In this document: in pieces, positions 1-21,977 of the stretch
Numbering within the stretch: the first letter of the stretch is position 1
Layout of the letters: each line of letters begins with the position of its first letter
IMG/VR virus record: IMGVR_UViG_2802429219_000016
Direction: 5' to 3' (one strand)
DNA length: 31,583 bases
Origin: a virus
Taxonomy: Duplodnaviria; Heunggongvirae; Uroviricota; Caudoviricetes
Position numbers and translations under genes: made by a program
The notes under the pieces: generated by a model
Database searches by the model: none
What the model was told of the DNA's origin: nothing
Seen by the model: only the letters and a program-made list of their open reading frames with translations

Positions 1-525
1 TTATACAGCTTTCTTTACATCGTTTTCTCTTACAGGGAAATTATGTTCTTTGCCTTCATACTGAGACAAAATCTCTCTCACTTTTTCCGGTGGTAATGCC
101 TGAAGAGTTTGCAGGGTTTTCTGTTGCTCCACAGTAATCCCTAATGCCTCTAATGCCTTATCTTTACTGACAATTGTAGGCATAAGTCCTTTAATCCCTG
201 CTACACGAATGATCTCCACAGCTGCGGCCTGCTCATCTGGTGTTAAGAAGCTCATTGCATAAATTAGCCTCTCATCAACTGTATGGGCGATTGATGTATG
301 CACTGGTTTATCAGAAAGTGAGGCTCCTTTAATGGCCCTGCGTGTTTCTTCTGGCAGACTGTTGATGTGATACTCATAAGCGACACCTTTCCCACCGTGA
401 CGCTGACGTTTTACCCAATCTTCCGCCACAGCTTTCCTGGTAATGTTAGTCGCCAACTTTGGTACACCAGGCATCCCTTCCAGCTCTTTCGCATTAAACC
501 ATTCTTTGATTTCAAAAGACATCAT
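1..525 (-). CDS. c: Mu c-like lysogeny repressor (174 aa)
   Basis: Leftward ORF divergent from ner-A-B. N-terminus ([26 protein letters not shown]) is paralogous to the N-terminus of the transposase at 940 ([26 protein letters not shown]), as in Mu c/MuA. Stop codon is at window position 1-3. Confidence 0.8.
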   Translation of the reverse strand: MMSFEIKEWFNAKELEGMPGVPKLATNITRKAVAEDWVKRQRHGGKGVAYEYHINSLPEETRRAIKGASLSDKPVHTSIAHTVDERLIYAMSFLTPDEQAAAVEIIRVAGIKGLMPTIVSKDKALEALGITVEQQKTLQTLQALPPEKVREILSQYEGKEHNFPVRENDVKKAV

Positions 526-2966: not shown

Positions 2967-3926
2967 ATGAATATTTCCGATATTCGCGCAGGACTGCGCA
3001 CGCTTGTAGACAATGGAGAAACCACGCTGACACGCATCGCCAGTGAATCAGGCGTGGCCCTGAGCACAGTCAGTGGTTTTGTGAATGATAAATATAACGG
3101 CAACATGGAATCAGTCGGGCGCACACTGGAACGCTGGCTGGAAAACTATCACCGCGCAGAAGAACTGCCGGAACCCCCGCGTTTTGTGGAAACTGCAACA
3201 GCCCGTCAAATCTGGACAAGTATGCGTTTTGCTAATCTGACCGGAACCATTGCTGTTATCTGTGGCAATCCAGGAGTGGGTAAAAGCGAAGCAGCCCGTG
3301 AATTTTGTCGCACTAATAATAATGTCTGGATGATCACCATCGCGCCATCCCGTGCCAGTACGCTGGAATGTCTGACTGAACTTGCCGAAGAGTTGGGAAT
3401 GAATAATGCACCATGTCGCAAAGGGCCGCTTTCCCGTAATCTGCGTCGCCGCCTGAAAGGGACGCAGGGACTGGTCATTGTTGACGAAGCTGATCACCTT
3501 GACACCGAAGCGCTGGAAGAGCTCCGTCTGTTACAGGAGTCCGCCTGTATTGGTCTGGTTCTGATGGGGAATCACCGTGTTTATTCAAATATGACCGCTA
3601 ATGGCGACAGAACAATTGAGTTTGCCCGTCTGTTTTCCCGTATTGCAAAGCGCACAGCAATTAATAAAACCAAAGAAGACGATGTAAACGCAATTGCGGA
3701 TGCCTGGCAGATTACCGGGAAAAATGAACGGGAATTATTACAGCAGATTGCACAAACGCCTGGTGCGCTCCGCATTATGAATCAAACGCTGCGCCTTGCT
3801 GTTATGAATGCCTTCGGTAAAGGCGAACGTGTTAATGAGGATTATCTGCGTGAGGCTTACAAAGAGTTAGACCAGGACGTTGATGTTTCGATGCTGCTGG
3901 GTGTGCAAGGGGATGCTGAATCATGA
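2967..3926 (+). CDS. B: Mu B-like transposition ATPase / target DNA activator (319 aa)
   Basis: Walker A GNPGVGKS and Walker B LVIVDEAD; N-terminal HTH-like region; position after A. Confidence 0.9.
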
Positions 3927-4814: not shown

Positions 4815-4887
4815 AAGCGGTTCAGTTATCGCTGCGGCATATTCCGGCATCACTGCGCGCCCCCTGTTGTACTGAGTGGTGACCGGA

Positions 4888-5175
4888 ATGATGTGTAAGC
4901 GTAAACGCTGGTCACGCGAAGACCGGGAATTTATCGAAGCCAGTGTCGGGAAAATGACCGTCGAGGAAATGGCGAAAAAACTGAACGTTGCCACAACTGC
5001 CCTCCGGGCACACGCCAGAAGGCACGGAATATCGTTGTGTGCATATCGAATCAGTGAGCACGACAAATATTTGTGTCGTGAACTTTATAAAGAAGGGGTG
5101 GCTATTCATGTGATAGCCCAAAAGATGGAATTAAGCAATCGTGCTGTATCCAGCATTGTATACAGCGAATATTAA
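4888..5175 (+). CDS. Putative DNA-binding protein with two tandem HTH-like segments (95 aa)
   Basis: Segments MTVEEMAKKLNVATTALRAHARRHGI and VAIHVIAQKMELSNRAVSSIVY look like helix-turn-helix units; ATG 4888 chosen over track GTG 4876. Confidence 0.4.
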   Translation: MMCKRKRWSREDREFIEASVGKMTVEEMAKKLNVATTALRAHARRHGISLCAYRISEHDKYLCRELYKEGVAIHVIAQKMELSNRAVSSIVYSEY

Positions 5176-5195: not shown

Positions 5196-5720
5196 ATGGC
5201 TAAACCAGCAAAACGAATCAAGAACGCCGCAGCGGCTTATGTTCCACAATCCCGCGATGCCGTGGTATGTGATATCCGCCGGATTGGGGACCTGCAACGC
5301 GAAGCGGCACGACTTGAAACAGAAATGAATGACGCTATCGCTGAGATTACGGAGAAATATGCCTCACAGATTGCGCCCCTTAAAACCAGTATCGAAACCC
5401 TTTCAAAAGGCGTTCAGGGATGGTGTGAAGCGAACCGTGACGAACTGACGAACGGCGGCAAGGTGAAGACGGCAAACCTGGTAACCGGCGATGTGTCATG
5501 GCGTCAGCGCCCACCATCGGTAAGTATTCGCGGTGTGGATGCGGTGATGGAAACACTGGAGCGTCTTGGCCTGCAACGCTTTATTCGCACGAAACAGGAA
5601 ATCAACAAGGAAGCGATTTTACTGGAACCGAAAGCAGTTGCGGGTGTTGCCGGAATTACGGTTAAGTCTGGAATTGAAGATTTTTCTATTATTCCGTTTG
5701 AACAGGAAGCTGGTATTTAA
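5196..5720 (+). CDS. gam: Gam host-nuclease inhibitor / DNA-end binding protein (174 aa)
   Basis: Near full-length match to Mu Gam as I recall it (MAKPAKRIK.AAAAYVPQ.RDAV...IGDLQREA.RLETEMNDAIAEITEK...WCEANRDELTNGGKVKTANLVTGDVSWR); AGGAG RBS at 5181. Confidence 0.9.
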   Translation: MAKPAKRIKNAAAAYVPQSRDAVVCDIRRIGDLQREAARLETEMNDAIAEITEKYASQIAPLKTSIETLSKGVQGWCEANRDELTNGGKVKTANLVTGDVSWRQRPPSVSIRGVDAVMETLERLGLQRFIRTKQEINKEAILLEPKAVAGVAGITVKSGIEDFSIIPFEQEAGI

Positions 5721-6551: not shown

Positions 6552-6864
6552 TGCTGATTTAATGGCTGCAACCTTAATTTCCAGTGGCATGTCAGAACAA
6601 AAGGTAAATGATTTCCTGGATAATGTCGTATACCAGCACTATGAGCAGGCCAGAGAAAATTTAATTTCAGAAAAGCGCACGATGATTGCTGAATCATTAA
6701 GCCCTGCATGGATTATCGAAGAGTTGCGGGGAATCATTGCCAGTCAGGATAAAGTGGCGGCAGTTGCCGCCCTCGATGTGCTACAGCGAATGAGTAAAGA
6801 GTTATTCAACACTGAATTAATTTTTAAATCCGGGGGACATAATGAGCCGCACATCCCTGATTAA
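6529..6864 (+). CDS. Hypothetical early protein (111 aa)
   Basis: ORF with GAGG RBS; no recognised domain. Confidence 0.45.
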   Translation: MKIQMITDADLMAATLISSGMSEQKVNDFLDNVVYQHYEQARENLISEKRTMIAESLSPAWIIEELRGIIASQDKVAAVAALDVLQRMSKELFNTELIFKSGGHNEPHIPD

Positions 6865-7393
6865 ATTAATTCATGTTGCCCGTCGGGAGTTGCAACTCGA
6901 CGATGACACTTACCGAGCTTTTCTGGTGCAGTGCACGGGCAAAACCAGTTGCCGCGAGCTGTCCGTTGCACAACTGGAACAGGTGCTCGATGCCATGAAA
7001 GAGCGCGGTTTTAAAAAGCAGAAAAAACATCCCCGCCGTCGCTTTAAGGGGCATGTCACACCACGCGAGAAGATTTACAAAATCTGGCAGCAGATGTTTC
7101 TTGACGGTTTCGTCTCCGATATCAGCGACGCTGCGCTGGACAAATACGTTGAGCGCCTGACAGCCAGACGTAATGGCGGACAGGGTGTTTCCACGCTGGC
7201 ATGGTGTCACGGGGAATCGTTGCAGATTGTGCTCGAAACGCTCAAACAGTGGCATATGCGCTGCATCCGGGAAGCCTTTGCCCGACATGGCGTGCCTTTA
7301 CCTGTGAGCGAAACCGGGCGGGAGCTGCGCGGCTATGATGCACTGACCAGTGCATATGCCCGCGCACGAAACAGCGGGAGAATTGCTGTATGA
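6842..7393 (+). CDS. gemA: GemA-like (Mu gp16 family) protein (183 aa)
   Basis: Position immediately upstream of and overlapping mor; size and basic composition consistent with Mu GemA/gp16 family (recollection). Confidence 0.65.
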   Translation: MSRTSLIKLIHVARRELQLDDDTYRAFLVQCTGKTSCRELSVAQLEQVLDAMKERGFKKQKKHPRRRFKGHVTPREKIYKIWQQMFLDGFVSDISDAALDKYVERLTARRNGGQGVSTLAWCHGESLQIVLETLKQWHMRCIREAFARHGVPLPVSETGRELRGYDALTSAYARARNSGRIAV

Positions 7394-7839
7394 AACAGAT
7401 GAAAGAGCAGGATTTGTTCGAAGACCTTCGGGACGACAGCGTTCTGGAATATCTTCATGATTACCAGGAAAACACCGCTTATCCGGCGTTACTTTCTGAA
7501 CTGAACGCACTGCTGCGTAAAGAGCTGGCCCGGATTGGAGCAGACCCTGCCCATTCCCTTGAGCTGGTTGTGGCGATTTGTCGCCATATCGGCGGGATGC
7601 AGGTTTATGTTCCGAGGGGGAATATTCTGGAGAATCTTGTCCGGGATATGCGTATCTGGCGTGATTTTAACGGCCATAATATTCCTGAACTGGTTCAGCG
7701 TTACGGGGTGACGTATAAAACCGTCTACAAGGCCATCAAACGGATGCGACGTCTGGAGCGTAATAAATACCAGCCGGATTTGTTTTACCCCTCCCCGAAC
7801 CTGCCTCACCCCGTTCGTCGCCCACCACGACGCCCTTAA
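7390..7839 (+). CDS. mor: Mor/C-family transcription activator (149 aa)
   Basis: DLFEDLRDDSVLEYL...ALLSELN.LLR.ELARIGADPAHSLELVVAICRHIGGMQVYVPRG...RDMRIW.DFNG.N..EL..RYGVTYKTVYKAIKRMRRL closely parallels Mu Mor including the C-terminal HTH. Confidence 0.8.
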   Translation: MKQMKEQDLFEDLRDDSVLEYLHDYQENTAYPALLSELNALLRKELARIGADPAHSLELVVAICRHIGGMQVYVPRGNILENLVRDMRIWRDFNGHNIPELVQRYGVTYKTVYKAIKRMRRLERNKYQPDLFYPSPNLPHPVRRPPRRP

Positions 7840-7844
7840 TCAAT

Positions 7845-7869
7845 GAAGCCGGTAAATCCGGCTTTTTTT
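7845..7869 (+). terminator. Intrinsic terminator-like hairpin plus T7 run downstream of mor
   Basis: GAAGCCGG-TAAAT-CCGGCTTTTTTT: 6-8 bp GC stem, 5-nt loop, seven T. Part of a 40-bp element repeated at 15561-15600. Confidence 0.5.
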
Positions 7870-7924
7870 ATGCCTCCGGCACCATGAAGCAGACCACGTT
7901 TAAATCTGCTTCACAGGTGCTTTT

Positions 7925-8521
7925 ATGGAAAATCAAAAATTCTCCCCGGCCTTTGAACATGCGCTGAATTTTATTCTGCGTCCTGATATCGAAGGCGGCT
8001 ATGTCAATGACCCCACTGACAGCGGCGGCGAAACAAAATACGGCATTTCTGACCGCCGCGACGGTGTGATTGACGGCAAAACCGATGTCAACGGCGACGG
8101 CAAACCGGATACCCGCATTAAGGATTTGACCCGCGAACAGGTTGCGCAGATTTACTGGCGCGATTACTGGCTGCTTGCCGGGTGTGATCAGTGGCCTGAT
8201 GGTGTGGCGCTCTTTGTGTTTGATGCGGCTGTTCAGCATGGCGTGGAGCAAGCCGTCAAGTTTTTACAGGAAGCCGCTGATGTGTCTGCCGATGGCATCA
8301 TCGGCCCGCGTACCCGCAAGGCTGTGAGCCTGTCCACCCCGGACTGGCTGCTGTCCCGCTGCATTGTTCGCCGTTGCCGCTTTTATGCGGGCCTCATCAA
8401 ATCAAAACCCGCTCGTGGCAAATACCTGAACGGCTGGTTTAACCGCATGGAAGAACTGACCGACGCCTGTCTGGAAATTATCGATACCCCTCTGGGCATC
8501 ATGTCCGCCACGCGGGGGTGA
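7925..8521 (+). CDS. Endolysin, GH108-type lysozyme with C-terminal peptidoglycan-binding region (198 aa)
   Basis: EGGYVNDPTDSGGETKYGIS catalytic motif typical of GH108; C-terminal ADGIIGPRTRKAV fits PG-binding domain; no N-terminal TM segment, so apparently not a SAR endolysin. Confidence 0.75.
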   Translation: MENQKFSPAFEHALNFILRPDIEGGYVNDPTDSGGETKYGISDRRDGVIDGKTDVNGDGKPDTRIKDLTREQVAQIYWRDYWLLAGCDQWPDGVALFVFDAAVQHGVEQAVKFLQEAADVSADGIIGPRTRKAVSLSTPDWLLSRCIVRRCRFYAGLIKSKPARGKYLNGWFNRMEELTDACLEIIDTPLGIMSATRG

Positions 8522-8522
8522 T

Positions 8523-8750
8523 ATGGGCAAAGGCTGGGATGCCTCACTGAAAGCCGGGCGGCGTGACCGCCTGCGCCAGGAGGTTCTGCACCGCATGGCC
8601 GGAGGTCCGCCCCCGAAACCGCTGGACTATACCGGCCATGATGGCACACACGCCAGCTACTACATGCGTGGCTGGAACTCCGTGGATACACGGGACATTT
8701 TCTGGCAGTGCCAGAAGTACAAGGAAAAACTCAATGCACAGAATGAATAG
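8523..8750 (+). CDS. Hypothetical protein in lysis module (75 aa)
   Basis: ATG 2 nt after endolysin stop; no recognised domain. Confidence 0.4.
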   Translation: MGKGWDASLKAGRRDRLRQEVLHRMAGGPPPKPLDYTGHDGTHASYYMRGWNSVDTRDIFWQCQKYKEKLNAQNE

Positions 8751-9144
8751 TCTTTTTGTTCGCGTTATTTACTCCCGCTTTATGTTGTGCCAGTGGTCGT
8801 TTCTGGGACTGTCGGCAGTACTTTTTCTGGCGAGCTGTTTTGCCGGATGGCGGGCGTTTGCGGTCATGGTGCTGGCATACGGCGCGACACTCTGCCTGAT
8901 TCACAGTTTCCAGCTGGGCAACGTACCTTATCGCCTGCAGCCCAAAAGGCGTTTCCGGGCCGCCTCCCTTCGAATTGTCGTGTGGTCATGGGTGGTCTGG
9001 GCCGTTGGTTTTTTCATGCTGACATTCGGCATTCTTTATCTGAAGGAGCCTTATCAGCTGGCGTTCTGGCTGGGCGGTATTTTTTGCGCGGCACTTTATA
9101 AACATCAGCGCCGTTTTCATAAGGGGGATTCATGGATCCGTTAA
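8734..9144 (+). CDS. Polytopic membrane protein, holin candidate (136 aa)
   Basis: About four hydrophobic segments; ATG 8734 with AAGGAAAAA RBS preferred over the in-frame upstream start at 8563. Confidence 0.45.
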   Translation: MHRMNSLFVRVIYSRFMLCQWSFLGLSAVLFLASCFAGWRAFAVMVLAYGATLCLIHSFQLGNVPYRLQPKRRFRAASLRIVVWSWVVWAVGFFMLTFGILYLKEPYQLAFWLGGIFCAALYKHQRRFHKGDSWIR

Positions 9145-9740
9145 CCCTTTCAGGCATCGCCTCTGTTCTGCTGAAAGCCGGGCCGGGGCTGATTCGTTCC
9201 GTCGGGCGCTGGTTTGGTGGCAGTACATCTGCCGCCGCTGACTCGGTGGCCGGTATGGTGGAAAGCGTCCGGGAAAGCCTGCCGGTGGCTGAACAGCAAC
9301 GCATTCTGGAACAAAAACTGGTGATGCTGTCACCGGAGCAACTGATGCAGCTGGAAACCCTGAAAGTTCAGCTGCAACAGCTGGAGGTGGAACGGCAGAA
9401 GCTGGTGCTGGCTGACCAGCAGGCCGCACACCACGAACAGCAGGAAACCATCCGCAATGGTGACAACGCCACGGACAGCTATGTGCGCCAGACACGCCCG
9501 CTGCTGGCCCGCCTTTCCTGTTACAGCAGTCTGGCCTATGTGCTGTTGCTCTCCTGCGGCCAGATTGCCGGAGCCATTGCCGGTGCCAGAGGTATTACGC
9601 TGCATATGCCATCACCGGACTGGGATATCACGCTGATGTTGCTTACCCCGGCGCTGGGCTATCTCGGTGTGCGAACCCTTGACGGCTTTGCCCGTTACAG
9701 CAAATCAAGCCGTCACAAAATGTCTGCGGGGCTGAAATGA
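9132..9740 (+). CDS. Membrane protein with N-terminal coiled coil and C-terminal TM segments (202 aa); lysis-associated
   Basis: Gln/Leu-rich heptad-like region (EQQRILEQKLVMLSPEQLMQLETLKVQLQQLEVERQKL) followed by hydrophobic stretches. Confidence 0.45.
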   Translation: MDPLTLSGIASVLLKAGPGLIRSVGRWFGGSTSAAADSVAGMVESVRESLPVAEQQRILEQKLVMLSPEQLMQLETLKVQLQQLEVERQKLVLADQQAAHHEQQETIRNGDNATDSYVRQTRPLLARLSCYSSLAYVLLLSCGQIAGAIAGARGITLHMPSPDWDITLMLLTPALGYLGVRTLDGFARYSKSSRHKMSAGLK

Positions 9741-9964
9741 CCGACGAAATCGATCGCATCAGTGAAGTGGTTTTGAACGAGCGTCAGAGCGTCGTTAAAG
9801 CCTGGCAGACACGGACAAAAGAAACGCCCCACAGCCGGGGCTTCTGCAATGACTGCGGGAACGTTATTCCGGCACAGCGCCTTGCGGCGCTGCCGGATGT
9901 GGTGACCTGTATTGACTGTCAGCAGATGCGGGAACGCAGGAGGAAAACGTGTCCTGGGAAATGA
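9737..9964 (+). CDS. TraR/DksA-family C4 zinc-finger protein (75 aa)
   Basis: C-x2-C-x17-C-x2-C (CNDCGNVIPAQRLAALPDVVTCIDCQ) and size typical of TraR / lambda Orf73 family. Confidence 0.7.
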   Translation: MTDEIDRISEVVLNERQSVVKAWQTRTKETPHSRGFCNDCGNVIPAQRLAALPDVVTCIDCQQMRERRRKTCPGK

Positions 9965-10254
9965 TCAGAGCCAACTGGCCCATTCTGTGGGCATTGCTGA
10001 TGACAGGAATAAACCTGCTTCAGTTGATTCTGGCAAAGACCTACGTCAAACGCGAAGAGTTTGATTTGCTGCGTTCCCGCGTGTCGGTGATGGAAAGCCA
10101 GGTACATCAGCTACCTGATCGTGATGAGTTCCACCGCCTGCAGCTGGATATCAGCAACCTGCGGGGAGAAATCAAAGAGCTGGGGCCATCCATCCGCCAG
10201 GTATCCCGCATCAGCGATTTGTTATTAGAGAACGAGTTAAAGGAAAAAAATTAA
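9949..10254 (+). CDS. Small N-terminally anchored membrane protein with coiled coil (101 aa); i-spanin-like architecture
   Basis: N-terminal TM (WPILWALLMTGINLLQLIL) then helical region; GTG start 5-6 nt after AGGAGG. Spanin role is inference from architecture only. Confidence 0.4.
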   Translation: MSWEMIRANWPILWALLMTGINLLQLILAKTYVKREEFDLLRSRVSVMESQVHQLPDRDEFHRLQLDISNLRGEIKELGPSIRQVSRISDLLLENELKEKN

Positions 10255-10547
10255 TGGCGATGAAAGAGATCCTCACTGAAGACCGTCGTCTGGTGTTGCT
10301 GCGTTCCCTGCTGGATTGTGGCGACAGTGCGAATGAATCCGTGTTGCAGACCTGCCTTCAGGCCTACGGTCATAAGGTATCCCGTGATGTGGTGCGCACC
10401 CAGCTTGCATGGCTGCGCGAGCAGGGGCTGGTTCGTCTGTCTGATGTGGGCGGCTGTTACGTGGCTGAAATCACCGGCAGCGGCGAGGATGTGGCAAACG
10501 GCCTGTCCAGCGTTCCGGGCGTTAAAAAACCCCGTGCGAGGGACTGA
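10254..10547 (+). CDS. Hypothetical protein (97 aa)
   Basis: Tightly coupled ORF between lysis and packaging genes; no recognised domain. Confidence 0.45.
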   Translation: MAMKEILTEDRRLVLLRSLLDCGDSANESVLQTCLQAYGHKVSRDVVRTQLAWLREQGLVRLSDVGGCYVAEITGSGEDVANGLSSVPGVKKPRARD

Positions 10548-10549
10548 GC

Positions 10550-10849
10550 ATGGCCCGAAAACTGAAGCCGTTAAGTCGCGGAGAACGGGCCGTCGTGCGG
10601 CAACTGGCGTACTGCCTTGTGCTGGCAGATATTGAGCAAAACGCCATTGTCCGTGCATACGAACAACAGACCGGAAAGCCCTGGAACCCGGATGCACCGG
10701 ATACCCCCATGAAACGTGCCCTGCGTTCATCACCGGCATGTGCGCGGCTGTGGAAGCTGCTGGGTAAGGATATCCGCTCCGTTCGCGAAGAAATATACGC
10801 CGGTCTGAAAACACCGGGAACTGAAGACGGGGGCCGTCGTGAACCGTAA
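10550..10849 (+). CDS. Hypothetical protein (99 aa)
   Basis: Tightly coupled ORF upstream of packaging genes; no recognised domain. Confidence 0.45.
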   Translation: MARKLKPLSRGERAVVRQLAYCLVLADIEQNAIVRAYEQQTGKPWNPDAPDTPMKRALRSSPACARLWKLLGKDIRSVREEIYAGLKTPGTEDGGRREP

Positions 10850-10986
10850 AAAGAATCCGATAAGTAAAGCGTCCCGTGATGAACTCCGCCGTCTGGCGCA
10901 CAACCTGACATGGCGGGAAATCCAGAGCGGCGCACTGAAATCTGCATACGAAAGTTTACAGCGTAGTGAGCAACAGGAGGGCACAC

Positions 10987-11568
10987 ATGGAAAATGAACA
11001 ACGCCCCACCCGTGGCCGTCTTTCCAAAGTGGATTTACTCCCGGACAGCATCCGGGAGCAGTTGCATCAGATGCTGCGGGAAAAGCGGCACACGCAGGAA
11101 GAAATCCGCGAAGCCATCAACGCCCTGATTGACGAACACAACCTGCCGGAAGAGATGCAGTTAAGCCGGACGGGCTTAAACCGCTATGCCATCCGCATGG
11201 AAAAAGTCGGGGCAAAAATCCGTGCCTCCCGCGAAATGGCCGAAGTCTGGGCGGCAAAGCTGGGTTCCGCGCCGACGTCAGACGTCGGCAAGCTGCTGAT
11301 GGAGTTTGTAAAAACGCTGGCTTTTGAAACGTCCATGTCGATGGCAGAAGACGACAAGCCCGTTGCACCGAAGGCGCTGGGGCAACTGGCGCTGGTTGCC
11401 CAGCGTCTGGAAGCGGCAGCCATGACCAGCCATAAACGCGAGAAAGCGATCCGCGATGCGTTTGCGCAGGAGATGGCAGAGAAAACCGAAGAACTGGTCA
11501 GAACGGGCGGTCTGTCAGGTGGTGCGGCTGACACCATCAAACGTGAAATTCTGGGGATTAGCGCATGA
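10987..11568 (+). CDS. Putative terminase small subunit (Mu gp27-like, DUF3486-type) (193 aa)
   Basis: Directly upstream of and overlapping the large terminase; AGGAGG RBS 6 nt before ATG 10987; family assignment from recollection. Confidence 0.5.
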   Translation: MENEQRPTRGRLSKVDLLPDSIREQLHQMLREKRHTQEEIREAINALIDEHNLPEEMQLSRTGLNRYAIRMEKVGAKIRASREMAEVWAAKLGSAPTSDVGKLLMEFVKTLAFETSMSMAEDDKPVAPKALGQLALVAQRLEAAAMTSHKREKAIRDAFAQEMAEKTEELVRTGGLSGGAADTIKREILGISA

Positions 11569-13100
11569 CACAAATGGACACGTTCAGTGAATATGATGTT
11601 CTGCTGCCGTATCAGAAACGCTGGGTGGCGGATGATGCCGACCTGAAAATCGCCGAGAAATCCCGCCGTACCGGTTTAACCTGGGCGGAGGCGGCAGATG
11701 CAGCACTGACAGCATCGCTGAAGAAGGAAGACGGCGGGCGCGATCACTTTTATATCGGTTCGAATAAGGAGATGGCCCGCGAATTTATCGACGCTGTGGC
11801 GATGTGGGCGAAAGCGTTTAATGCGGCAGCGGAAGAAATCTGCGAGGAAGTGATCACCGACGAAGACAAGGACATTCTGACGTTCGTCGTGTACTTCGCC
11901 AGCGGTTTTAAGGTCAAGGCACTGTCCAGCAACCCGAGCAACATTCGCGGGATGCAGGGGAATGTCACCATCGACGAGGCCGCGTTCCATGAAAAACTGG
12001 ACGAGCTGCTGAAGGCGGTGCTGCCGCTGAAAACATGGGGCGGCAAAATTCGCCTTATTTCCACCCATGACGGCGTGGACAACCTGTTTAACCAGCTGAT
12101 TCAGGAAAGCCGCGCGGGCAAAAAAGATTACAGCATTCACACCATCACGCTGGACGACGCCTGCAATGACGGGCTGTACCGACGTATCTGTCAGGTGCGC
12201 GGCATGGTGTGGTCACCGGAAGCCGAGGCGGAATGGAAAGAAGGCCTGCTGCGAAATACCGCCACCCGCGAAGACGCGCTGGAGGAGTATTACTGCGTCC
12301 CGAAAAACGGCGGCGGCACGTATATCCGCCGCTCACTGCGTGAACGTGCGGCCCGTGGCACCGGGAAAGTGTTGCGCTTTACCGGCACACCGGAATTTAA
12401 CGCACTGACGGAAAGCCAGCGTCGGGCAGATATCCGGGAATGGCTGGAAACAGTGGTGCGCCCTGAACTGGAAAAACTCCCGAAGAACCTGCGCCACTGT
12501 CTGGGGGAAGACTTTGCGCGTTCGGGTGACCTGACCGTACTGGCCCCGGTGACGGTGAACGATGACACCACCCGCGAGGTGCCGTTCCTGGTTGAGCTTG
12601 GCAATGTGCCGTTTAAACAGCAGGAGCAGGTGCTGTTCTGGCTTTGCGATCGTCTGCCCCGCCGTGACGGCATCAAAATGGATGCGCGGGGGAATGGTCA
12701 GTATCTGGCAGAACAGGCGGCAGAGCGGTACGGCGATGAAGTGGAACAGGTGATGCTGTCCGTGGCGTTTTACCGCGAAAACATGCCCCGTTTCCGTGCG
12801 GCGTTTGAAGATGATGAGCTGATCCTTCCGAAGCATGAAGACGTGATCAATGACCTCGGGGCCATTCAGTTACTGCGTGGCGTTCCCGGCATTGATGATT
12901 CACGAACCAGAGGCAGCGACGGTCACAAACGTCACGGCGACGCCGCTGTGGCCATTTTCCTGGGCTTCCTTGCCAGTAAAGATGACTGCCACCGTTACGA
13001 ACTGCATCGCCTGAACCGCCCGGCGAAACCGGAAGAACGCAACGCGCGCCGCCAGCTGAAGCTGACACGCGGCCTGAAAAATGAGGGAGGTTTACTGTGA
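11565..13100 (+). CDS. Terminase large subunit (511 aa)
   Basis: Size, position before portal, and Mu gp28-like sequence character. Confidence 0.8.
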   Translation: MTQMDTFSEYDVLLPYQKRWVADDADLKIAEKSRRTGLTWAEAADAALTASLKKEDGGRDHFYIGSNKEMAREFIDAVAMWAKAFNAAAEEICEEVITDEDKDILTFVVYFASGFKVKALSSNPSNIRGMQGNVTIDEAAFHEKLDELLKAVLPLKTWGGKIRLISTHDGVDNLFNQLIQESRAGKKDYSIHTITLDDACNDGLYRRICQVRGMVWSPEAEAEWKEGLLRNTATREDALEEYYCVPKNGGGTYIRRSLRERAARGTGKVLRFTGTPEFNALTESQRRADIREWLETVVRPELEKLPKNLRHCLGEDFARSGDLTVLAPVTVNDDTTREVPFLVELGNVPFKQQEQVLFWLCDRLPRRDGIKMDARGNGQYLAEQAAERYGDEVEQVMLSVAFYRENMPRFRAAFEDDELILPKHEDVINDLGAIQLLRGVPGIDDSRTRGSDGHKRHGDAAVAIFLGFLASKDDCHRYELHRLNRPAKPEERNARRQLKLTRGLKNEGGLL

Positions 13101-14668
13101 ACCTGAAACAACTGGCCGGGGCCGTTCGCCATCTGCTGAACCCGGCAACCGGTGAGGAAGACACGCTGAAAAAAGAGGCGCTCAACGAAGCACAGGCCCG
13201 TCCGCGTCATGCCGGTGTGCGTTCGGCCTCGCCGGGTATCAGCGTCGCCTCCGGGCTGACCCCCGGCAGGCTGGCAGGCATTCTGCGCAATGCTACTGAC
13301 GGCATCACGCGTGATTTTTTTATCCTTGCTGAAGAGATGGAAGAACGCGATTTGCATTACGCCTCGGTACTGCGCACCCGCAAGCTGACGGTGGCGGGTA
13401 TCGAACCGGTGGTGGTGGCCGCCAGTGATGACGATGCTGACGTGCAACTGGCGGACGCCATCCGTGCACTGATGGAGGCACCGCAAATCCCTGAGCTGAT
13501 GTTTGATCTGCTCGACGGGCTGGGAAAAGGCGTGGCGGTCTGTGAAATTTTGTGGAACACCCGCAACAACCACTGGGTGCCCCGTGATTATGAGTGGGTT
13601 GATCCCCGTTTTCTGAAAGCCGAAAAGCCCACGCTGCGCCAGTTCCGCCTGCTGACAGACGATGAACCGGTGGATGGTGTACCGCTGACACCGGGAAAAT
13701 TCATTGTTCACCAGCCGCGCCTGAAATCCGGTTTGCCGCTGCGTAACGGTCTGGCCCGTCTGGTGGCGGTAATGTACATGCTGAAATCCTTTACCGTGCG
13801 CGACTGGTGGGCATTTGCGGAAAAATTCGGCATTCCGGTCACGGTGGGGAAATACGGTCCCAACGCCACGGAGGAACAAATCCGCGTGCTGATTGATGCG
13901 ATTGCGTCCATTGCCTCGGATGCCGGGTGTGCCATTCCGCAGTCCATGCAACTGGAGATGAAGGAAACCGCCAGCCGGAATAACGGCGGCGCACTGTTCC
14001 GTGAAATGGCGGAATGGTGTGATGCGCAAATCAGTAAAGCCGTGCTGGGGCAGACCATGACCACGGATAACGGCAGTTCGCGCTCACAGGCGGACGTGCA
14101 CAATCAGGTGCGTATGGACATTGTGCGCTGGGACGCGCGGCAGCTGGCTAACACGCTGAATGAATATCTGGTGCGCCCCTACATCGAGGCCAATTACGGG
14201 CCACAGGAACACTATCCCCGTGTTGTTCTGCGTATCAGTGAAGCAGAAGATCTGAAGGCGCTGACAGATGCTCTGGTGCCGCTGATTGACCGGGGGATGC
14301 GGGTTCAGGAATCGGAGCTGCGGGACCGGTTCGGCCTGGCTGAACCGGACGACGGGGCTGATGTTCTGCATCCGGTGTCTGCCGGAATGTCAGGTGATGT
14401 GGCGATGAACCGCGAGCGCGTCGCCCTGAACCGGGAACACCCCGATGAACTGGCACAGATGGTGGATGATGCCCTGCGTGACTGGCAGAAAACCGGCGAG
14501 GCGTTCACGAACCCGGTGCTGACACTGGCGCAGGAATGCGACAGTTTTGATGACTTTCTGAAACGCCTGCCTGAGCTTCAGGAAACGCTGAACGCGGACG
14601 ACTTTGCCCTGCAACTGGCGGAGGTGTGCTTTAAGGCGCGTGCGCTGGGGGACACCGGTCATGCGTGA
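13097..14668 (+). CDS. H: Portal protein, Mu gp29 (H) family (523 aa)
   Basis: GTG start after GGGAGG RBS, overlaps terminase stop; size and order typical of Mu-like portal. Confidence 0.8.
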   Translation: MNLKQLAGAVRHLLNPATGEEDTLKKEALNEAQARPRHAGVRSASPGISVASGLTPGRLAGILRNATDGITRDFFILAEEMEERDLHYASVLRTRKLTVAGIEPVVVAASDDDADVQLADAIRALMEAPQIPELMFDLLDGLGKGVAVCEILWNTRNNHWVPRDYEWVDPRFLKAEKPTLRQFRLLTDDEPVDGVPLTPGKFIVHQPRLKSGLPLRNGLARLVAVMYMLKSFTVRDWWAFAEKFGIPVTVGKYGPNATEEQIRVLIDAIASIASDAGCAIPQSMQLEMKETASRNNGGALFREMAEWCDAQISKAVLGQTMTTDNGSSRSQADVHNQVRMDIVRWDARQLANTLNEYLVRPYIEANYGPQEHYPRVVLRISEAEDLKALTDALVPLIDRGMRVQESELRDRFGLAEPDDGADVLHPVSAGMSGDVAMNRERVALNREHPDELAQMVDDALRDWQKTGEAFTNPVLTLAQECDSFDDFLKRLPELQETLNADDFALQLAEVCFKARALGDTGHA

Positions 14669-15425
14669 AACTCTCATCCCGAAAGAGGCGCTGGCGTGGC
14701 TGAAGGCGAAGAAGCTGCGCCCCGGTTTTGATTACCGGGATGTGTGGCGGGAAGAGCACCGGAACAGCTTCACCGTGGCAAAAATGCTGCAACTGGATTT
14801 GTTGTCGGATGTGAAAGCCCTTGTGGAAGACGCCCTGCAAAGCGGGCAGACGTTCAGCGAGTTCCGGGAGGCGCTGCAACCGCTGCTGATAAAACGCGGA
14901 TGGTGGGGCGTACAGGAGATGGATGATCCGCTGACGGGCGAAACCCGCACCGTGCAACTGGGCAGCGACCGCCGCCTCCGCACGATTTTTGATACCAACA
15001 TGCGCACCGCCCGCGCGGCGGGCCAGTGGGAACGCATTCAGCGGACAAAGCGGGCCATGCCGTATCTGATTTATGAGCTGGGGCCATCCCGCGACCACCG
15101 GGCGGAGCATGTGAAATGGGCGCGTCTGTGTCTGCCGGTAGATCATCCGTTCTGGCAGACACATTTTGCCCCTAACGGCTGGGGCTGCAAATGCACCATC
15201 CGTCAGGTCAGCCGTGGTGAGTATGCGCAACTGGCGGCACAGGGCACCATTCACACCGAAGCGCCGGAAATCAGAACCGTCCGCTGGGTGAATAAACGCA
15301 CGGGCGAAGAGGAAGATGTGCCGGAAGGGATTGATCCGGGCTGGAACTACAATCCCGGCATAAACCGTGAGCAGGAGCTGGCGCGCCAGCTGGCGACAAA
15401 ACAGGCCCGTTTTGACAGTGAGTAA
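14661..15425 (+). CDS. F: Head morphogenesis protein, Mu F (gp30) family (254 aa)
   Basis: Follows portal with overlapping start; size and order match the Mu F family. Confidence 0.75.
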   Translation: MRETLIPKEALAWLKAKKLRPGFDYRDVWREEHRNSFTVAKMLQLDLLSDVKALVEDALQSGQTFSEFREALQPLLIKRGWWGVQEMDDPLTGETRTVQLGSDRRLRTIFDTNMRTARAAGQWERIQRTKRAMPYLIYELGPSRDHRAEHVKWARLCLPVDHPFWQTHFAPNGWGCKCTIRQVSRGEYAQLAAQGTIHTEAPEIRTVRWVNKRTGEEEDVPEGIDPGWNYNPGINREQELARQLATKQARFDSE

Positions 15426-15448
15426 CCCTCCCGCCGTAAGTCCCCCTG

Positions 15449-15472
15449 AAACGCATCAGAAACGCGTTTTTT
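15449..15472 (+). terminator. Candidate intrinsic terminator after F
   Basis: AAACGC-loop-GCGTTT stem followed by TTTTTT (15467-15472). Confidence 0.35.
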
Positions 15473-15564
15473 ATTCTGATGGCGTGAATGTGCATTCTGA
15501 CGTTTTTGAAGATGCTGTGGCGTTTTTGAAGGGGTTTTGAAGGGGGTATTTCCCCGTTTTCAGT

Positions 15565-15589
15565 GAAGCCGGTAAATCCGGCTTTTTTT
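15565..15589 (+). terminator. Second copy of the GAAGCCGG-TAAAT-CCGGCTTTTTTT hairpin/T-run element
   Basis: Identical hairpin and T7 run to 7845-7869; the 40-bp blocks 7841-7880 and 15561-15600 are 36/40 identical. Confidence 0.5.
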
Positions 15590-15638
15590 CTGCCTTCCGC
15601 ATACTGACCGTCGGTAACCCCAAACGACGGAGACTGAC

Positions 15639-16601
15639 ATGCAACCGGAACTGCTGGCGCTGTGTTTTTCCCTGCCAGAACCCATCCCTGAGCTGACACC
15701 TGCTCAACTGCCGGAATGGCTTGAACTCGTCCCTGCGGGTGAGTTCACCGGGCGCGATGGCCGGACGTGGATTAACCGCAATCCGCATGAGGTGGTCACC
15801 CGCTCGTCCGACATCAAAATTCCGGTGGACATTGAACACGCCACCGAAATTAAAGGGCAACGCGGTGATGAAGCCCCGGCGTATGGCTGGGTGGAAGAAC
15901 TGCGCGTGACGGACAGCGGCACCATTGAAGGCCGTGTTGTCTGGAGCGAGTACGCCCGGTGGATGCTGAGCGAACGCCGTTACCGCTATTACAGCCCGGC
16001 GTTTTTCTTTGACGCAGACGGTGTGGTGACGCGCCTGTCCAGCGTCGGGCTGACCAACAAACCTAACCTGGACTTTCCTGCACTGAATACGGAGAAAAAC
16101 CCGATGACAGTACCTGTGCAAATCACCGGCCTGCTTGGGCTGGCTGAATCTGCCACGGTGGACGATACCGTGGCCGCCATTAAACAACTTCAGGAGAACG
16201 AACAGGTGGCGCTGAACCGTGCACAGACACCTGACCTGACGAAGTTTGTACCGGTGGAAACCCACAATCTGGCACTGAACCGTGCCGAAACCGCAGAACA
16301 ACGCCTTCAGCAACTGGAAGAGAAGGAAGCAGAGGCGCTTGTGGATGCGGCCATCGAGGCCGGAAAAGTGGCCCCGGCCAACCGTGACATGTTCCTTGCC
16401 ACCTGCCGCACGGAAGAAGGCCGCAAACAGTTTGCGGAATACACCAAAGGTGCACAGCCGCTGGTGAACAACGACAAGCCCAGCCAGGGCAAGGATAAAC
16501 CCGCGCAGACACTGACCGACGCCGAACTGGCGATGTGCCGCAGCATGGGTATTACCGGGGAAGAGTTCCTCGCCGCTAAACCGAAACAGGAGAATAACTG
16601 A
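15639..16601 (+). CDS. I: Head maturation protease / scaffold, Mu I (gp32) family (320 aa)
   Basis: Position immediately before the major head gene; C-terminal coiled-coil scaffold-like region (LQQLEEKEAEALVDAAIEAGK). Confidence 0.75.
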   Translation: MQPELLALCFSLPEPIPELTPAQLPEWLELVPAGEFTGRDGRTWINRNPHEVVTRSSDIKIPVDIEHATEIKGQRGDEAPAYGWVEELRVTDSGTIEGRVVWSEYARWMLSERRYRYYSPAFFFDADGVVTRLSSVGLTNKPNLDFPALNTEKNPMTVPVQITGLLGLAESATVDDTVAAIKQLQENEQVALNRAQTPDLTKFVPVETHNLALNRAETAEQRLQQLEEKEAEALVDAAIEAGKVAPANRDMFLATCRTEEGRKQFAEYTKGAQPLVNNDKPSQGKDKPAQTLTDAELAMCRSMGITGEEFLAAKPKQENN

Positions 16602-17503
16602 TGGGAGCAGTCACTTCCGAAGTCCTTCACGCGCTGACCACCTGTCTGAGCGCCGCTTATACCCGTGGTCTGAGTGGTGTCACCCCACAGTGGCAGCGTA
16701 TCGCCTCTGAAATCCCGAGCTCGTCCGCCTCCAATACCTACGGCTGGATGAAAGATTTACCGGACATCAAAGAATGGGTTGGCGAGCGTCAGCTGGCTGA
16801 GCTGGAAGGTTATGGTTACACCATTACCAACAAACTCTGGGAAAGTTCGATCCGCGTAAAACGCGAACACATTGAAGACGATCAGATTGGTCAGTACAGC
16901 ATTACCGCCGAACGCTATGGCCGTATGACAGCCGTGTTCCCGGACAAGCTGTGTTACGCCCTGTTGTGTGCCGGATTTACTACCAAATGCTTTGACAGCC
17001 AGAACTTCTTTGATGAAGACCACCCGCTGGGTGACGGCACGTACAGCAACGTTGTCGGCGCACCGATAACGGACAAGGGCGAACCGTGGTTCCTGATTGA
17101 TGAGTCGCAGGTACTGAAACCCATCATCTGGCAGACGCGACGCGCCTTTAAGTTTGAAGCCCTGGACGATCTGAACAGCGAGCACACCTTCAAGAACCAT
17201 GAGTTCCTGTACGGGGTGGATGGTCGCTGTAATGCGGGCTTTGGCTTCTGGCAGACCGCCGTCGGTTCCCGTGCCGCACTGACAGCGGAGAACTACGAGA
17301 GCGCCGGGAATCTGTTGCGGGGTATGAAGGGCACCAACGGTGAACCGCTGGGCATCCGCCCGACCACCCTTGTGGTGGGACCGAAAAACCGCGCGAACGC
17401 GAAACGCATCATCGACGCCATGCTGGTCAACGGCGGCGATTCCAACATCTGGTACAAGGATGTGGAGATCGTGGACAGCCCGTTCATCACCACCCCGGCA
17501 TAA
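16601..17503 (+). CDS. T: Major head subunit, Mu T (gp34) family (300 aa)
   Basis: Size, position after protease/scaffold, strong RBS CAGGAGA, followed by a strong hairpin. Confidence 0.8.
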   Translation: MGAVTSEVLHALTTCLSAAYTRGLSGVTPQWQRIASEIPSSSASNTYGWMKDLPDIKEWVGERQLAELEGYGYTITNKLWESSIRVKREHIEDDQIGQYSITAERYGRMTAVFPDKLCYALLCAGFTTKCFDSQNFFDEDHPLGDGTYSNVVGAPITDKGEPWFLIDESQVLKPIIWQTRRAFKFEALDDLNSEHTFKNHEFLYGVDGRCNAGFGFWQTAVGSRAALTAENYESAGNLLRGMKGTNGEPLGIRPTTLVVGPKNRANAKRIIDAMLVNGGDSNIWYKDVEIVDSPFITTPA

Positions 17504-17522
17504 CCCGTCATCCGTAAACCCC

Positions 17523-17555
17523 AGTTAAAAGGTGCTGTGAATGCCCTTTTAACTC
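17523..17555 (+). terminator. Strong hairpin downstream of major head gene
   Basis: Perfect 10-bp stem AGTTAAAAGG / CCTTTTAACT with 12-nt loop, then CCCTTTTAAAAGG. Confidence 0.45.
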
Positions 17556-17574
17556 CCTTTTAAAAGGCAGAGCT

Positions 17575-17880
17575 ATGAGTGAAAAAGCAGAAACAAAAAG
17601 CACGAAAACCGCAAAGAACAGTGCAGCACAGGAAAACCCGGCACCGCTGGCAGACGTTATTGTGGCTGACAGTCAGGCGAATGAACCACGTCCGGCTGAA
17701 GACCCGGTTACTGTACAGGGTGACGCCCCTGTCCGGCTGAACGTCCGGGCCATGTCTGAAAACGGGTTCTGGCGCTGTGGCCGTTTCTGGTCACATGCCG
17801 GTGAGGATGTGGAAGTGACCGCAGAGGTGGCTGCCCGTCTGATGGTCGATCCGGATCTGATTGTCCGGAAAGAGGAGTAA
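17575..17880 (+). CDS. Small head-associated protein (101 aa), Mu gp35-like position
   Basis: ORF directly after major head gene; Ala/Glu/Pro-rich N-terminus. Confidence 0.5.
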   Translation: MSEKAETKSTKTAKNSAAQENPAPLADVIVADSQANEPRPAEDPVTVQGDAPVRLNVRAMSENGFWRCGRFWSHAGEDVEVTAEVAARLMVDPDLIVRKEE

Positions 17881-17885
17881 CGCTG

Positions 17886-18323
17886 ATGGGGTACATCACG
17901 CAGGAAGACCTGTTACGCGCGGACGGCAATCTTGTCTGGAACATGGCGATTAACCGGGAAACCAACGGGCTGGATGAAGACAAAATCCGTCAGGCCATCA
18001 GTGATGCCGAAGCGGAAATTGATTCGTTTCTGTCCCGCCGCTACCAGCTGCCGCTGGGGGTGACGGAAATCCCGCGCCCGCTGCAACGCGTGGCGGTATC
18101 GCTGGCGTTTTACTGGTTGTCAGAGCGTGACAATCAAATCACGGAGCTGATCCAGAAACGCTACGACGACGCCATTAAAACCCTGCGTGAGATGGCGAAC
18201 GGCACCCGTGACCTGGGCCTGCCGACGTATGCCACCCCGGCAGAAACCGACCACGGGAAAATCATTGTGGTGGGTGCCAATGCCCGGCTGTTCACCCGTA
18301 ACAACCTGAAAGGGGTGCTGTGA
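17886..18323 (+). CDS. Head-tail connector/completion protein, Mu gp36-like (145 aa)
   Basis: Position and size; family assignment from recollection. Confidence 0.55.
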   Translation: MGYITQEDLLRADGNLVWNMAINRETNGLDEDKIRQAISDAEAEIDSFLSRRYQLPLGVTEIPRPLQRVAVSLAFYWLSERDNQITELIQKRYDDAIKTLREMANGTRDLGLPTYATPAETDHGKIIVVGANARLFTRNNLKGVL

Positions 18324-18865
18324 TGGGAATTTCTGTACAGGTCAGCGGTGACCAGCGTCTGGAGGATATCCGCCGCGCCGTTGAAAAGCTGGCAGATGGT
18401 TCATTGCAGGCAGAGCTGCTGGAAAGCATTGGTGCGGTGGTGGAATCACAGACCCGCCGCCGCATCATCGATGAGAAAACCAGTCCGGGTGGCGAACGCT
18501 GGCCAGACTGGTCTGACGGGTACAAAAAGACCCGCCACGGCAACCAGAGTCTGCTGCGCGGTGAAGGCCATCTGCTGGAGAGTATCCAGTACATCGTGGA
18601 AAACCGTGTGGTGCGTATCGGTTCACCGCTGGATTATGCCCGCATCATGAATGACGGCTTTTCCGGCAGTGTGCCGGTCAGCGCCCACAAACGGCTTATC
18701 TCGCAGTGTTTCGGGCGGGCGCTGAAATATCCGGTCTGGCAGACCGTCGGCGCACATAACCGCATGATGAACATTCCGCAACGTGAATTTCTGGGGCTGT
18801 CTTCTGCCAATCAGCAGGAGCTGCAACAGGTTATCAGTCATTTCTGGAAGGAGGTTCTGCCATGA
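18323..18865 (+). CDS. Virion morphogenesis protein, Mu G-like (180 aa)
   Basis: Position in head-tail joining block; ATG 18323 (track uses GTG 18320). Confidence 0.55.
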   Translation: MGISVQVSGDQRLEDIRRAVEKLADGSLQAELLESIGAVVESQTRRRIIDEKTSPGGERWPDWSDGYKKTRHGNQSLLRGEGHLLESIQYIVENRVVRIGSPLDYARIMNDGFSGSVPVSAHKRLISQCFGRALKYPVWQTVGAHNRMMNIPQREFLGLSSANQQELQQVISHFWKEVLP

Positions 18866-19473: not shown

Positions 19474-19639
19474 GCCAGCGCGGGAAAACGTTCGTGTCCG
19501 TAAACCGGATGGCGCGCATTTATCCCCGCAAGGGGAACGTCTCGACGTCTGCGCTTACTGGCTGCGCCGTGAAGCCGAGGGAGATGTGGAAATAACCGCG
19601 CTTCCGAAAAATAGCAACAAAACCAGAGGGAAAAAATAA
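19454..19639 (+). CDS. Small protein, Mu gp38-like (61 aa)
   Basis: Short ORF between tail completion and sheath genes; ATG 19454 after GGGGTGA preferred over ATG 19439. Confidence 0.4.
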   Translation: MEQKLIKPARENVRVRKPDGAHLSPQGERLDVCAYWLRREAEGDVEITALPKNSNKTRGKK

Positions 19640-21114: not shown

Positions 21115-21123
21115 GGGGGCCGC

Positions 21124-21480: not shown

Positions 21481-21481
21481 C

Positions 21482-21877: not shown

Positions 21878-21977
21878 CCTGTCTCAGCGATTCAGCATTC
21901 AGTACCTGGAACAGCTGCCCCTGCGGCAGCTGTTCCGCCTGATAAAGCAACTGGAGAAACAGCATGGCAACAGGTAA
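21738..21977 (+). CDS. Alternative-frame extension of tail chaperone (candidate programmed-frameshift product)
   Basis: Frame +1 relative to 21482..21877 is open from 21738 and overlaps the last 140 nt of the chaperone gene, ending just inside the tape-measure start. Confidence 0.4.
   Translation, partial: NSCECSTRQTLSLSARKPLRWMKCLRRWQRGGELMPLAAALMNLLVNLSQRFSIQYLEQLPLRQLFRLIKQLEKQHGNR

Follow-up and report, generated by a model that had tools for sequence, protein, structure and literature searches.

Introduction

The Mor-to-C cascade of phage Mu is a textbook case of timed phage gene expression. In Mu, the genes after mor are arranged in the order gp18, gp19, gp20, C, and lys, with mor at 8781-9170, C at 9963-10385, and lys at 10480-10995. 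Here, we analyzed a stretch of 31,583 nucleotides (IMG/VR virus record IMGVR_UViG_2802429219_000016; the whole stretch is called the window hereafter), which is a Mu-like prophage with a Mor-family gene at 7390-7839, followed by a hairpin and then directly by an endolysin gene at 7925. The original prediction on this DNA described this arrangement, which is now backed by Pfam, folding, and a GH108 match; it was also right in placing C between mor and lys in Mu, and it proposed that this phage either runs a two-tier cascade with one activator or has a C gene that lies beyond the window or has diverged beyond recognition. Our analysis points to a two-tier lytic cascade, in which Mor would directly activate the late operons, as the probable arrangement.

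The Mor/C family is composed of small proteins (about 100-150 amino acids, aa) in which the N-terminal half is acidic, the C-terminal half is basic, and a helix-turn-helix (HTH) lies toward the C-terminus (PMC2582627). Within Pm, the Mor-binding dyad at -51 to -36 is made of two 5-bp inverted repeats and a G/C-rich 6-bp spacer (PMC4390567, PMC4287176), and the consensus of the C-type operator is TTAT-N5-6-ATAA (PMC12867686). Phages with lys immediately downstream of mor and lacking C have been described, i.e., Mannheimia 3927AP2, phiMhaMu2, and SuMu (Niu et al. 2015, PMC4553209); this study noted the missing C and identified no promoters.

Results

The Window Has a Single Recognizable Mor/C-Family Gene

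The following two genes are at the end of the early operon:

6842-7393, plus strand: gemA homologue, last-but-one gene of the early operon (Pfam GemA, 1.2e-32; phmmer against Mu GemA, 1e-101)
7390-7839, plus strand: Mor orthologue of 149 aa, the sole Mor/C-family gene (Pfam, phmmer, family hidden Markov model, 1rr7)

The product of 7390-7839 matched the Pfam family Mor (PF08765; 3.6e-30, 104.6 bits, cutoff 24.9), the Mu Mor structure in PDB entry 1rr7 (4.2e-52), and the PHROG 'late transcriptional activator' (5.4e-41). It shared 80 of 126 aligned residues (63%) with Mu Mor (phmmer 1.9e-54) and 46 of 143 (about 32%) with Mu C (phmmer 1.3e-16). The N-terminal half contains 13 acidic and 7 basic residues, the C-terminal half contains 6 acidic and 17 basic residues, and matches to HTH_28/HTH_23 span residues 94-121; the protein therefore has the size, the acidic N-half, the basic C-half, and the C-terminal HTH of the family. 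The recognition helix, VTYKTVYKAIKRMRR, was invariant across the related loci and resembled that of Mu Mor (VTFNTVYKAIRRMRR), not that of Mu C (LSQPQIYQIIARQRK). Moreover, the mor ATG overlaps the gemA stop codon by 4 bp, as in Mu. Judged by similarity, helix, and place directly after gemA, this protein is of the Mor subtype and not a C protein.

Queries taken from Mu (Mor and C) and from the window (Mor) were run by phmmer against all six-frame open reading frames (ORFs) of the window with at least 25 aa, and this gene was the single match. The same result was obtained with a family hidden Markov model (HMM), built from 103 sequences, Mu C among them, and run with the filters off against the six-frame ORFs of at least 20 aa; as a positive control, this HMM recovered both Mor (5e-62) and C (8.5e-41) in Mu. 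Pfam scans of 30 window ORFs (E <= 0.01-0.1) showed no further Mor match, and a protein homologue search gave only close relatives (at least 62% identity), with little profile depth gained. The earlier statement that no second Mor/C-family ORF is recognizable in the window thus held under the HMM search. Because the window cannot show its own right end, we examined two complete relatives, i.e., the E. coli PSS-15 prophage (L003; NZ_AP027709, about 496.1-530.4 kb; about 34 kb long, inserted in aaeB, with com-mom at its end, and 96.7% identical to the window over 7300-10300) and Klebsiella phage Kp4866-3 (L015; genome of 33 kb). Each one encodes a single Mor/C gene, and phmmer and the family HMM found no second one, which makes a C gene located beyond the window unlikely. 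As for a C that has diverged past recognition, it is formally possible, and the searches returned no candidate. No TTAT-N5-6-ATAA site was found upstream of the window late operons, and the sole match in the window was at 4074, in the early region; this test has limited sensitivity, as in Mu itself the strict consensus fits Pmom only. Neither a C paralogue between mor and lys nor C-type late operators, the marks of the three-tier cascade of Mu, were thus observed in the window.

The earlier framing of the missing C needs a correction, since its absence is not unusual: it is already described for Mannheimia/Haemophilus Mu-like phages, and among the 72 phage records with a Mor-family match in a tblastn survey, only 14 contained two Mor/C genes, all of them from the Mu/D108/SfMu/Yersinia group. 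This indicates that a single activator is the rule and Mu the exception.

The window Mor carries the motif QDLF at the N-terminus (7405-7419) and QPDLF at the C-terminus (7774-7839), the latter followed by a 14-residue proline-rich tail, YPSPNLPHPVRRPPRRP. A 2026 study reported that MuC binds the beta sliding clamp via such motifs, with QPDLF as its C-terminal consensus, and that, of the two, Mu Mor has the N-terminal motif only (PMC12867686). The C-terminus of Mu Mor is QPSLL, without QPDLF, and the Mor proteins of the relatives end in QPDLF, QPPLF, QYSLF, QMPLF, or the non-matching QYSLDME. These sequences are suggestive of a protein in which the DNA-binding helix is of the Mor type and the C-terminal motif resembles that of C, for which a clamp-binding role is putative. 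A Mor-C fusion generated by deletion was considered because the tail (YQPDLF...) resembles the C terminus of C, and was rejected, since the gp18 homologue persists downstream, normal-length Mor relatives end in a similar Qxx[L]F, and the position is homologous in Mor/C.

A Predicted Pm-Type Promoter Overlaps the Hairpin after mor

The region between mor and the endolysin gene contains the following elements, named P1:

7842-7857, plus strand: predicted P1 operator AATGA-AGCCGG-TAAAT (27.1 bits with the operator position weight matrix, PWM), orthologue of the Mor site of Mu Pm (-51 to -36)
7845-7869, plus strand: hairpin and run of seven T (T7), probable terminator of the early transcript, overlapping the P1 operator and spacer (folding)
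7880-7885, plus strand: P1 -10-like hexamer CACCAT, 10 nt past the T-run, with spacing equal to that of TATCCT in Mu Pm

Only 85 bp separate the mor stop codon from the endolysin ATG. The hairpin at 7845-7865 is composed of an 8-bp stem and a 5-nt loop and precedes the T7; its folding energy was -12.6 kcal/mol (z = -4.0), and none of 200 shuffled sequences was as stable. Table 3 of PMC4390567 gives GTAAAC as positions -57 to -52 of Mu Pm, and with this numbering the Mu operator is AGTAA-AGCCGG-TTAAT. On the 3' side of the operator, Mu Pm continues with CCGGC, T7, 10 nt, and TATCCT, and the window with CCGGC, T7, 10 nt, and CACCAT, i.e., AGTAAAGCCGGTTAATCCGGCTTTTTTT-N10-TATCCT in Mu and AATGAAGCCGGTAAATCCGGCTTTTTTT-N10-CACCAT in the window. 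This matching build of operator, CCGGC, T7, N10, and -10 hexamer identifies the window hairpin as orthologous to Mu Pm, in which footprints place Mor on the corresponding bases (PMC4287176, PMC4390567). The left arm and loop of the hairpin are therefore the predicted Mor operator, and the whole stem with its T-run can also stop the early transcript, as its fold suggests. Transcription from P1 is predicted to start near 7892, and the hexamer found at the P1 -10 position in the relatives was CACTAT, CACAAT, or CAAAAT.

The earlier description of this hairpin as terminator-like agreed with the fold and the T7, and fell short only where it implied a terminator and nothing else, since the promoter operator overlaps the hairpin. 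A literature search on the Mu early terminator gave nothing, and the hairpin is a probable terminator by its structure and by general background on Mu. The possibility that the stem GCCGG...CCGGC is itself the Mor-binding dyad was rejected, because the literature gives 5-bp repeats with a 6-bp G/C-rich spacer and Table 3 fixes the operator as AGTAA-AGCCGG-TTAAT.

The Element Is Repeated Upstream of Head Gene I

A second set of elements, named P2, is located between genes F and I:

15562-15577, plus strand: predicted P2 operator AGTGA-AGCCGG-TAAAT (PWM 26.6 bits), overlapping the exact repeat of the 25-mer
15565-15589, plus strand: second copy of the hairpin and T7 (exact repeat, folding)
15600-15605, plus strand: P2 -10 hexamer CATACT, core orthologous to Mu PI (CAAACT; alignment with Mu PI)
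15639-16601, plus strand: gene I (head protease/scaffold), first gene of the P2 operon (Pfam Mu-like_Pro, 1.9e-44)

The 25-mer GAAGCCGGTAAATCCGGCTTTTTTT has two exact occurrences in the window (7845 and 15565), both on the plus strand, where 100 shuffles gave an expectation of 0. The second copy sits in the 213-bp gap before gene I and is followed by 10 nt and CATACT, as in P1, and the gene I start codon is 34 nt past this hexamer. The stretch at 15426-15638, flagged beforehand as a possible late-promoter region, did contain this exact copy, and the distance to the -10 hexamer is equal to that in P1. Starting at its -10 hexamer, P2 aligned with Mu PI (CCTTCCGCATACTGAC vs CCTCCCGCAAACTGAC), and 5' of it the C-type sequence of Mu PI is replaced by the Pm-type operator. 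The relatives have CACACT, GACACT, or CATACT as the P2 -10 hexamer, and the transcription start of P2 is predicted near 15612. No consensus sigma-70 promoter was found on the plus strand of 7000-26000, in line with the expectation that activator-dependent promoters lack one. Collectively, the Pm orthology of the hairpin region and the 25-bp copy before gene I support the proposed two-tier cascade with one activator.

The F-I intergenic region also contains phased T-tracts, as GTTTTTGAAG repeats in the window (15440-15560) and as AAACGCGCCACGGCGTTTTTAAAC upstream of gene I in relatives (L005-L014). The latter closely resembles the Mu sequence (17880-17950) around the annotated gyrase cut site (17879/17880); judging from this resemblance, the T-tract region may be the equivalent of the strong gyrase site, just upstream of P2.

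A Third, Probable Site Lies within the gp45 Gene

The operator PWM was built from 19 sites of the related loci and used to scan the window. Besides P1 and P2, it detected a candidate P3:

26538-26553, plus strand: candidate P3 operator AGGGA-AAGCGG-TAAAT (AGGGAAAGCGGTAAAT) in the gp45 (baseplate V) gene (PWM 21.8 bits)
26577-26582, plus strand: candidate P3 -10 hexamer TATCAT, 23 nt 3' of the operator-like site

This score was the third best in the window, the next match reached 12.8 bits, and the top scores of 30 shuffles had a mean of 12.1 and a maximum of 20.9. The site is 165 nt upstream of gp46 (26703), and in both L003 and L015 the third-best PWM match was at the orthologous place in gp45. 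The codons of the operator were then compared across 18 non-redundant gp45 genes from viral contigs: Gly124 was encoded by GGG in 17 of 18 and Asn128 by AAT in 17 of 17, and Val127 was encoded by GTA or GTT only, which yield the two operator variants known from other sites. Other conserved Gly, Val, and Asn columns of gp45 used the common codons freely. This suggests that P3 is a probable, not an established, third Mor-dependent promoter. Over P1-P3, the operator has the form A[A/G][T/G]GA-A[G/A][C/G]CGG-T[A/T]AAT, and the sites at 7842, 15562, and 26538, at the right spacing to -10 hexamers, are predicted to be bound by the Mor/C protein. Weaker operator matches at 10564 and 20733 had no T-tract and no -10 hexamer and were taken as chance.

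The Predicted Promoter Unit Is Conserved across Enterobacterial Genera

A scan with one genome per species gave ten further loci, from Pluralibacter, Raoultella, Klebsiella, Serratia, Kluyvera, and Brenneria. They share the order gemA, mor, GH108, gp18-like, 202-aa protein, TraR-like, gp25 ... gp27, F, and I, with a single Mor/C gene each within 10-kb flanks. The unit of operator, T-tract, and -10 hexamer was present before the GH108 gene in all ten, and before gene I wherever the locus reaches it; P1 and P2 were both found in 12 of 12 loci covering both regions, from about eight enterobacterial genera including Escherichia. The -10 hexamers varied across loci, and the A at position 2 and the T at position 6 were kept.

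Most relatives from other genera (L005-L014, L015) have a moron inserted between the mor stop codon and the Pm-type element (for example, L005 7769-8290 and L007 10391-10700), whose product is either about 170 aa long and secreted or lipoprotein-like, or else a small membrane protein (about 105 aa). No such insert is present in the window or in its E. coli relatives. With a moron after mor, the promoter element still adjoined the lysis gene.

These loci bear on whether both hairpins are intrinsic terminators only, with the late genes transcribed by read-through or from unrecognized constitutive promoters and with a different or narrower target for Mor. Both window copies are indeed terminator-like, with their 8-bp stem, T7, and -12.6 kcal/mol, and the PI copies of L005 and L014 showed compensatory changes in the right arm, showing that the hairpin itself is selected in some lineages and the element has a dual role. 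However, the PI copies of L007, L009, L010, and L015 have a decayed right arm and T-run (in L009, the hairpin had -7.3 kcal/mol and z = -1.2), and yet the 16-bp operator and the -10 hexamer (GACACT) are kept at fixed spacing. The persistence of the operator and -10 hexamer where the hairpin decays, the position of the element beside the lysis gene despite the moron, and the A and T retained in the -10 hexamers argue that a promoter is the conserved unit. The orthology of the element to Mu Pm, footprinted for Mor (PMC4287176, PMC4390567), and the lack of a sigma-70 consensus promoter on the plus strand of the late region also argue against terminators alone, and we regard this explanation as very unlikely.

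The right half-site (TAAAT or TTAAT) was identical between P1 and P2 in 12 of 12 loci. This is not evidence of co-evolution, because shared ancestry or gene conversion explains the pattern equally well. Co-variation of Mor residues with the operator was likewise rejected: no Mor residue follows the right half-site variant, and neither does P3 of L015.

The distribution of this gene order was also informative about a defective prophage, from which C, Plys, and the Mu-type lys would have been deleted and in which the lytic cycle would no longer be completed. Compared with Yersinia phage vB_YpM_5, which has mor, Pm, GH108, gp18-like, C, and lys, the window is indeed without the C-lys segment. Nevertheless, about eight genera show this order with intact ORFs, as do 46 of 5426 complete E. 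coli genomes, the deposited Klebsiella phage genome, and 45 IMG/VR viral contigs; 3927AP2, a Mannheimia phage that also lacks C, can be induced (PMC4553209); and a simple deletion leaves unexplained the switch of the PI operator to the Pm type. A defective state thus appears extremely improbable. All the late ORFs of the window are intact.

Genes of the Predicted P1 Operon and Organization of the Prophage

The predicted P1 operon includes the following genes:

7925-8521, plus strand: endolysin with GH108 and PG_binding_3, first gene of the operon (Pfam; PHROG endolysin, 9.9e-54)
8523-8750, plus strand: homologue of the Mu middle-operon gene gp18 (E18) (phmmer against Mu gp18, 5e-33)
8734-9144: membrane or holin-like protein (PHROG 12596)
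9132-9740: membrane or holin-like protein (PHROG 1544, with a weak GTA_holin_3TM match)
9737-9964: DksA/TraR-type C4 zinc-finger protein (Pfam, 7.2e-11; PHROG 'DksA-like')
10550-10849: 99-aa protein without assigned function

As Yersinia phages drive GH108 and the gp18-like gene from the same promoter, the endolysin gene and the gp18 homologue of the window sit in the middle-operon place of those phages. In vB_YpM_5 (L002 5036-6964), there are two peptidoglycan hydrolases, GH108 after Pm and the Mu-type lysozyme after C. The holin-like pair occupies the place of Mu gp19, gp20, C, lys, and gp23, and no spanin or Mu-type signal-arrest-release (SAR) endolysin homologue was seen. The DksA/TraR-type gene is part of the P1 operon in all lineage members, and Mu has no counterpart at that position; its product may modulate RNA polymerase late in infection.

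The early part of the prophage contains the following genes:

1-525, minus strand: repressor
between the repressor and transposase A: ner
940-2928: transposase A
2967-3926: B
4876-5175: D5-like HTH protein, common to Mu (gp9)
5196-5720: gam

Downstream of the Mor-family gene, the order is lysis cluster, Mu-type packaging, head, tail, and baseplate genes, and then tail-fibre genes to the window end, which falls inside the second tail-fibre gene (30390-31583; phage_tail_N, Phage_fiber_2). The com-mom genes are expected at the unseen right end of this prophage, as in L003. The DNA identity of the gemA-mor stretch to Mu, D108, and SfMu was 73-75%, and this homology stops near 7755, close to the mor 3' end.

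Discussion

We propose a two-tier lytic cascade with Mor as the direct activator of the late operons from three features: there is one Mor/C gene only, the operator and -10 architecture is repeated and has its orthologues in Mu Pm and the Mu PI core, and this architecture persists across genera. The early transcript through gemA and mor would end at 7845-7869, and Mor would accumulate and bind the Pm-type operators in place of a -35 element, probably working with the host sigma-70 RNA polymerase, as in Mu. Transcription starting near 7892 (P1, 7842-7885) would then cover the lysis and packaging genes up to F, that starting near 15612 (P2, 15562-15605) the head and tail genes from gene I, and a probable start near 26589 (P3, 26538-26582) the baseplate and fibre genes. 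Mor would thus do in one step what Mor and then C do in Mu, and the middle and lys operons of Mu would be fused into one Mor-dependent operon.

Several points weigh against this proposal. Binding, activation, start sites, and termination in this lineage are predictions, drawn from the DNA. The left half-site is AATGA or AGTGA in the window vs AGTAA in Mu, and CACCAT of P1 matches TATAAT at three of six positions, which include the A at position 2 and the T at position 6. P3 is within coding sequence, and part of its conservation is protein-driven. The window ends where its source contig does (PTSA01000025.1, GCA_002965785.1), and the right end of the prophage is not on this contig. Finally, the region upstream of com-mom in L003 (35396-35530) contained no Mor-type operator (best PWM score, -5.3), and at least this one Mu-type late function is not explained by a cascade with Mor only. 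The same region contained no full TTAT-N5-6-ATAA C-type site. It has the GATC cluster that is characteristic of Pmom in Mu.

The com-mom promoter of L003, together with the unseen right end of the window prophage, is also what favors an unrecognized second activator acting in place of C, with the three tiers kept; this could be the TraR-like protein (9737-9964), the 99-aa protein (10550-10849), or a protein encoded at the right end or by the host. The TraR-like and 99-aa genes are absent from Mu and located in the P1 operon. TraR/DksA proteins, however, act on RNA polymerase without sequence-specific DNA binding, which counts against the TraR-like candidate, and the D5-like HTH protein (4876-5175) is common to Mu and so no replacement for C. 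Moreover, no shared motif other than the Mor-type one was found at the starts of the late operons, the operator there being of the Pm type, and the complete L003 and L015 encode no other Mor/C protein. We therefore consider a second activator unlikely.

Returning to Mor as the sole activator, the missing C is not new; what is new here are the likely late promoters, which have operators of the Pm type, in an enterobacterial lineage that stands near Mu, and a PI core that, by alignment, is orthologous to that of Mu and has a different operator type. The chances seem about even that this lineage is a natural C-less sibling of Mu (about 74% DNA identity in gemA-mor), with a Pm-type operator on the PI core and a Mor carrying the MuC-like QPDLF. 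If true, this lineage and the Yersinia phages with Pm-GH108 plus C would document the interconversion of three-tier and two-tier cascades, by way of swapped operators, a merger of the middle operon with the lys operon, and the passing of C-like properties to Mor, and would open the question of why Mu needs C to direct experiment. A single activator appears to suffice for most Mu relatives, and this lineage is close enough to Mu, with an identical Pm operator core and an orthologous PI core, for parts to be swapped. It is thus a simple system for asking what the C tier buys Mu, how the operator specificity of paralogous activators is reassigned, and whether the C-terminal clamp-binding motif of an activator couples late transcription to replication. 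For annotation, it gives a concrete promoter/operator signature for the late operons of a widespread group of enterobacterial prophages.

Compared with Mor/Pm of Mu, the window has an orthologous activator after gemA with an equal 4-bp overlap, and a promoter with the same A/T-rich -57 to -52 stretch, 5-6-5 operator of 16 bp, identical AGCCGG spacer, hairpin, T7, N10, and -10 hexamer. In Mu, Pm is the sole Mor target and drives gp18-gp20 and C, whereas in the window the predicted Pm-type promoter would drive the genes for the endolysin and for packaging, with a further copy ahead of gene I and a probable one ahead of gp46; Mu Mor is also without the C-terminal QPDLF and the proline-rich tail. 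With C and the late promoters of Mu, the window shares a Mor/C-family activator that is predicted to replace the -35 element, near -43.5, at several late operons, an orthologous PI core (-10 hexamer and leader), and a C-terminal QPDLF matching the MuC motif (PMC12867686), but it has no C gene, and its operators are Pm-type, not C-type.

Like the C-less phages of Pasteurellaceae, the window has the lysis gene straight after mor, a single Mor-family gene, and neither C nor a middle-operon activator, and the enzyme of 3927AP2 is also GH108 plus PG_binding_3. The proteins are distant, though, and in SuMu the operator sequence is unrelated and the lysis enzyme is an amidase. Haemophilus SuMu contains TGTGGAA-N4-TTCC exactly three times, in the gap between the mor stop codon and lys, before I, and in the gp45-gp46 gap, each followed 25 nt later by a -10-like hexamer, TAAAGT, TATTCT, or TATCCT; these are the same three places as P1-P3 in the window, an independent parallel from a distant phage with one activator. 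Yersinia phages vB_YpM_5 and vB_YpM_6 resemble the window in having GH108 and the gp18-like gene directly 3' of a Pm-type promoter, with 74% DNA identity there, and differ in keeping C and the Mu-type lysozyme downstream, so that GH108 is a middle-operon gene and the cascade is three-tiered.

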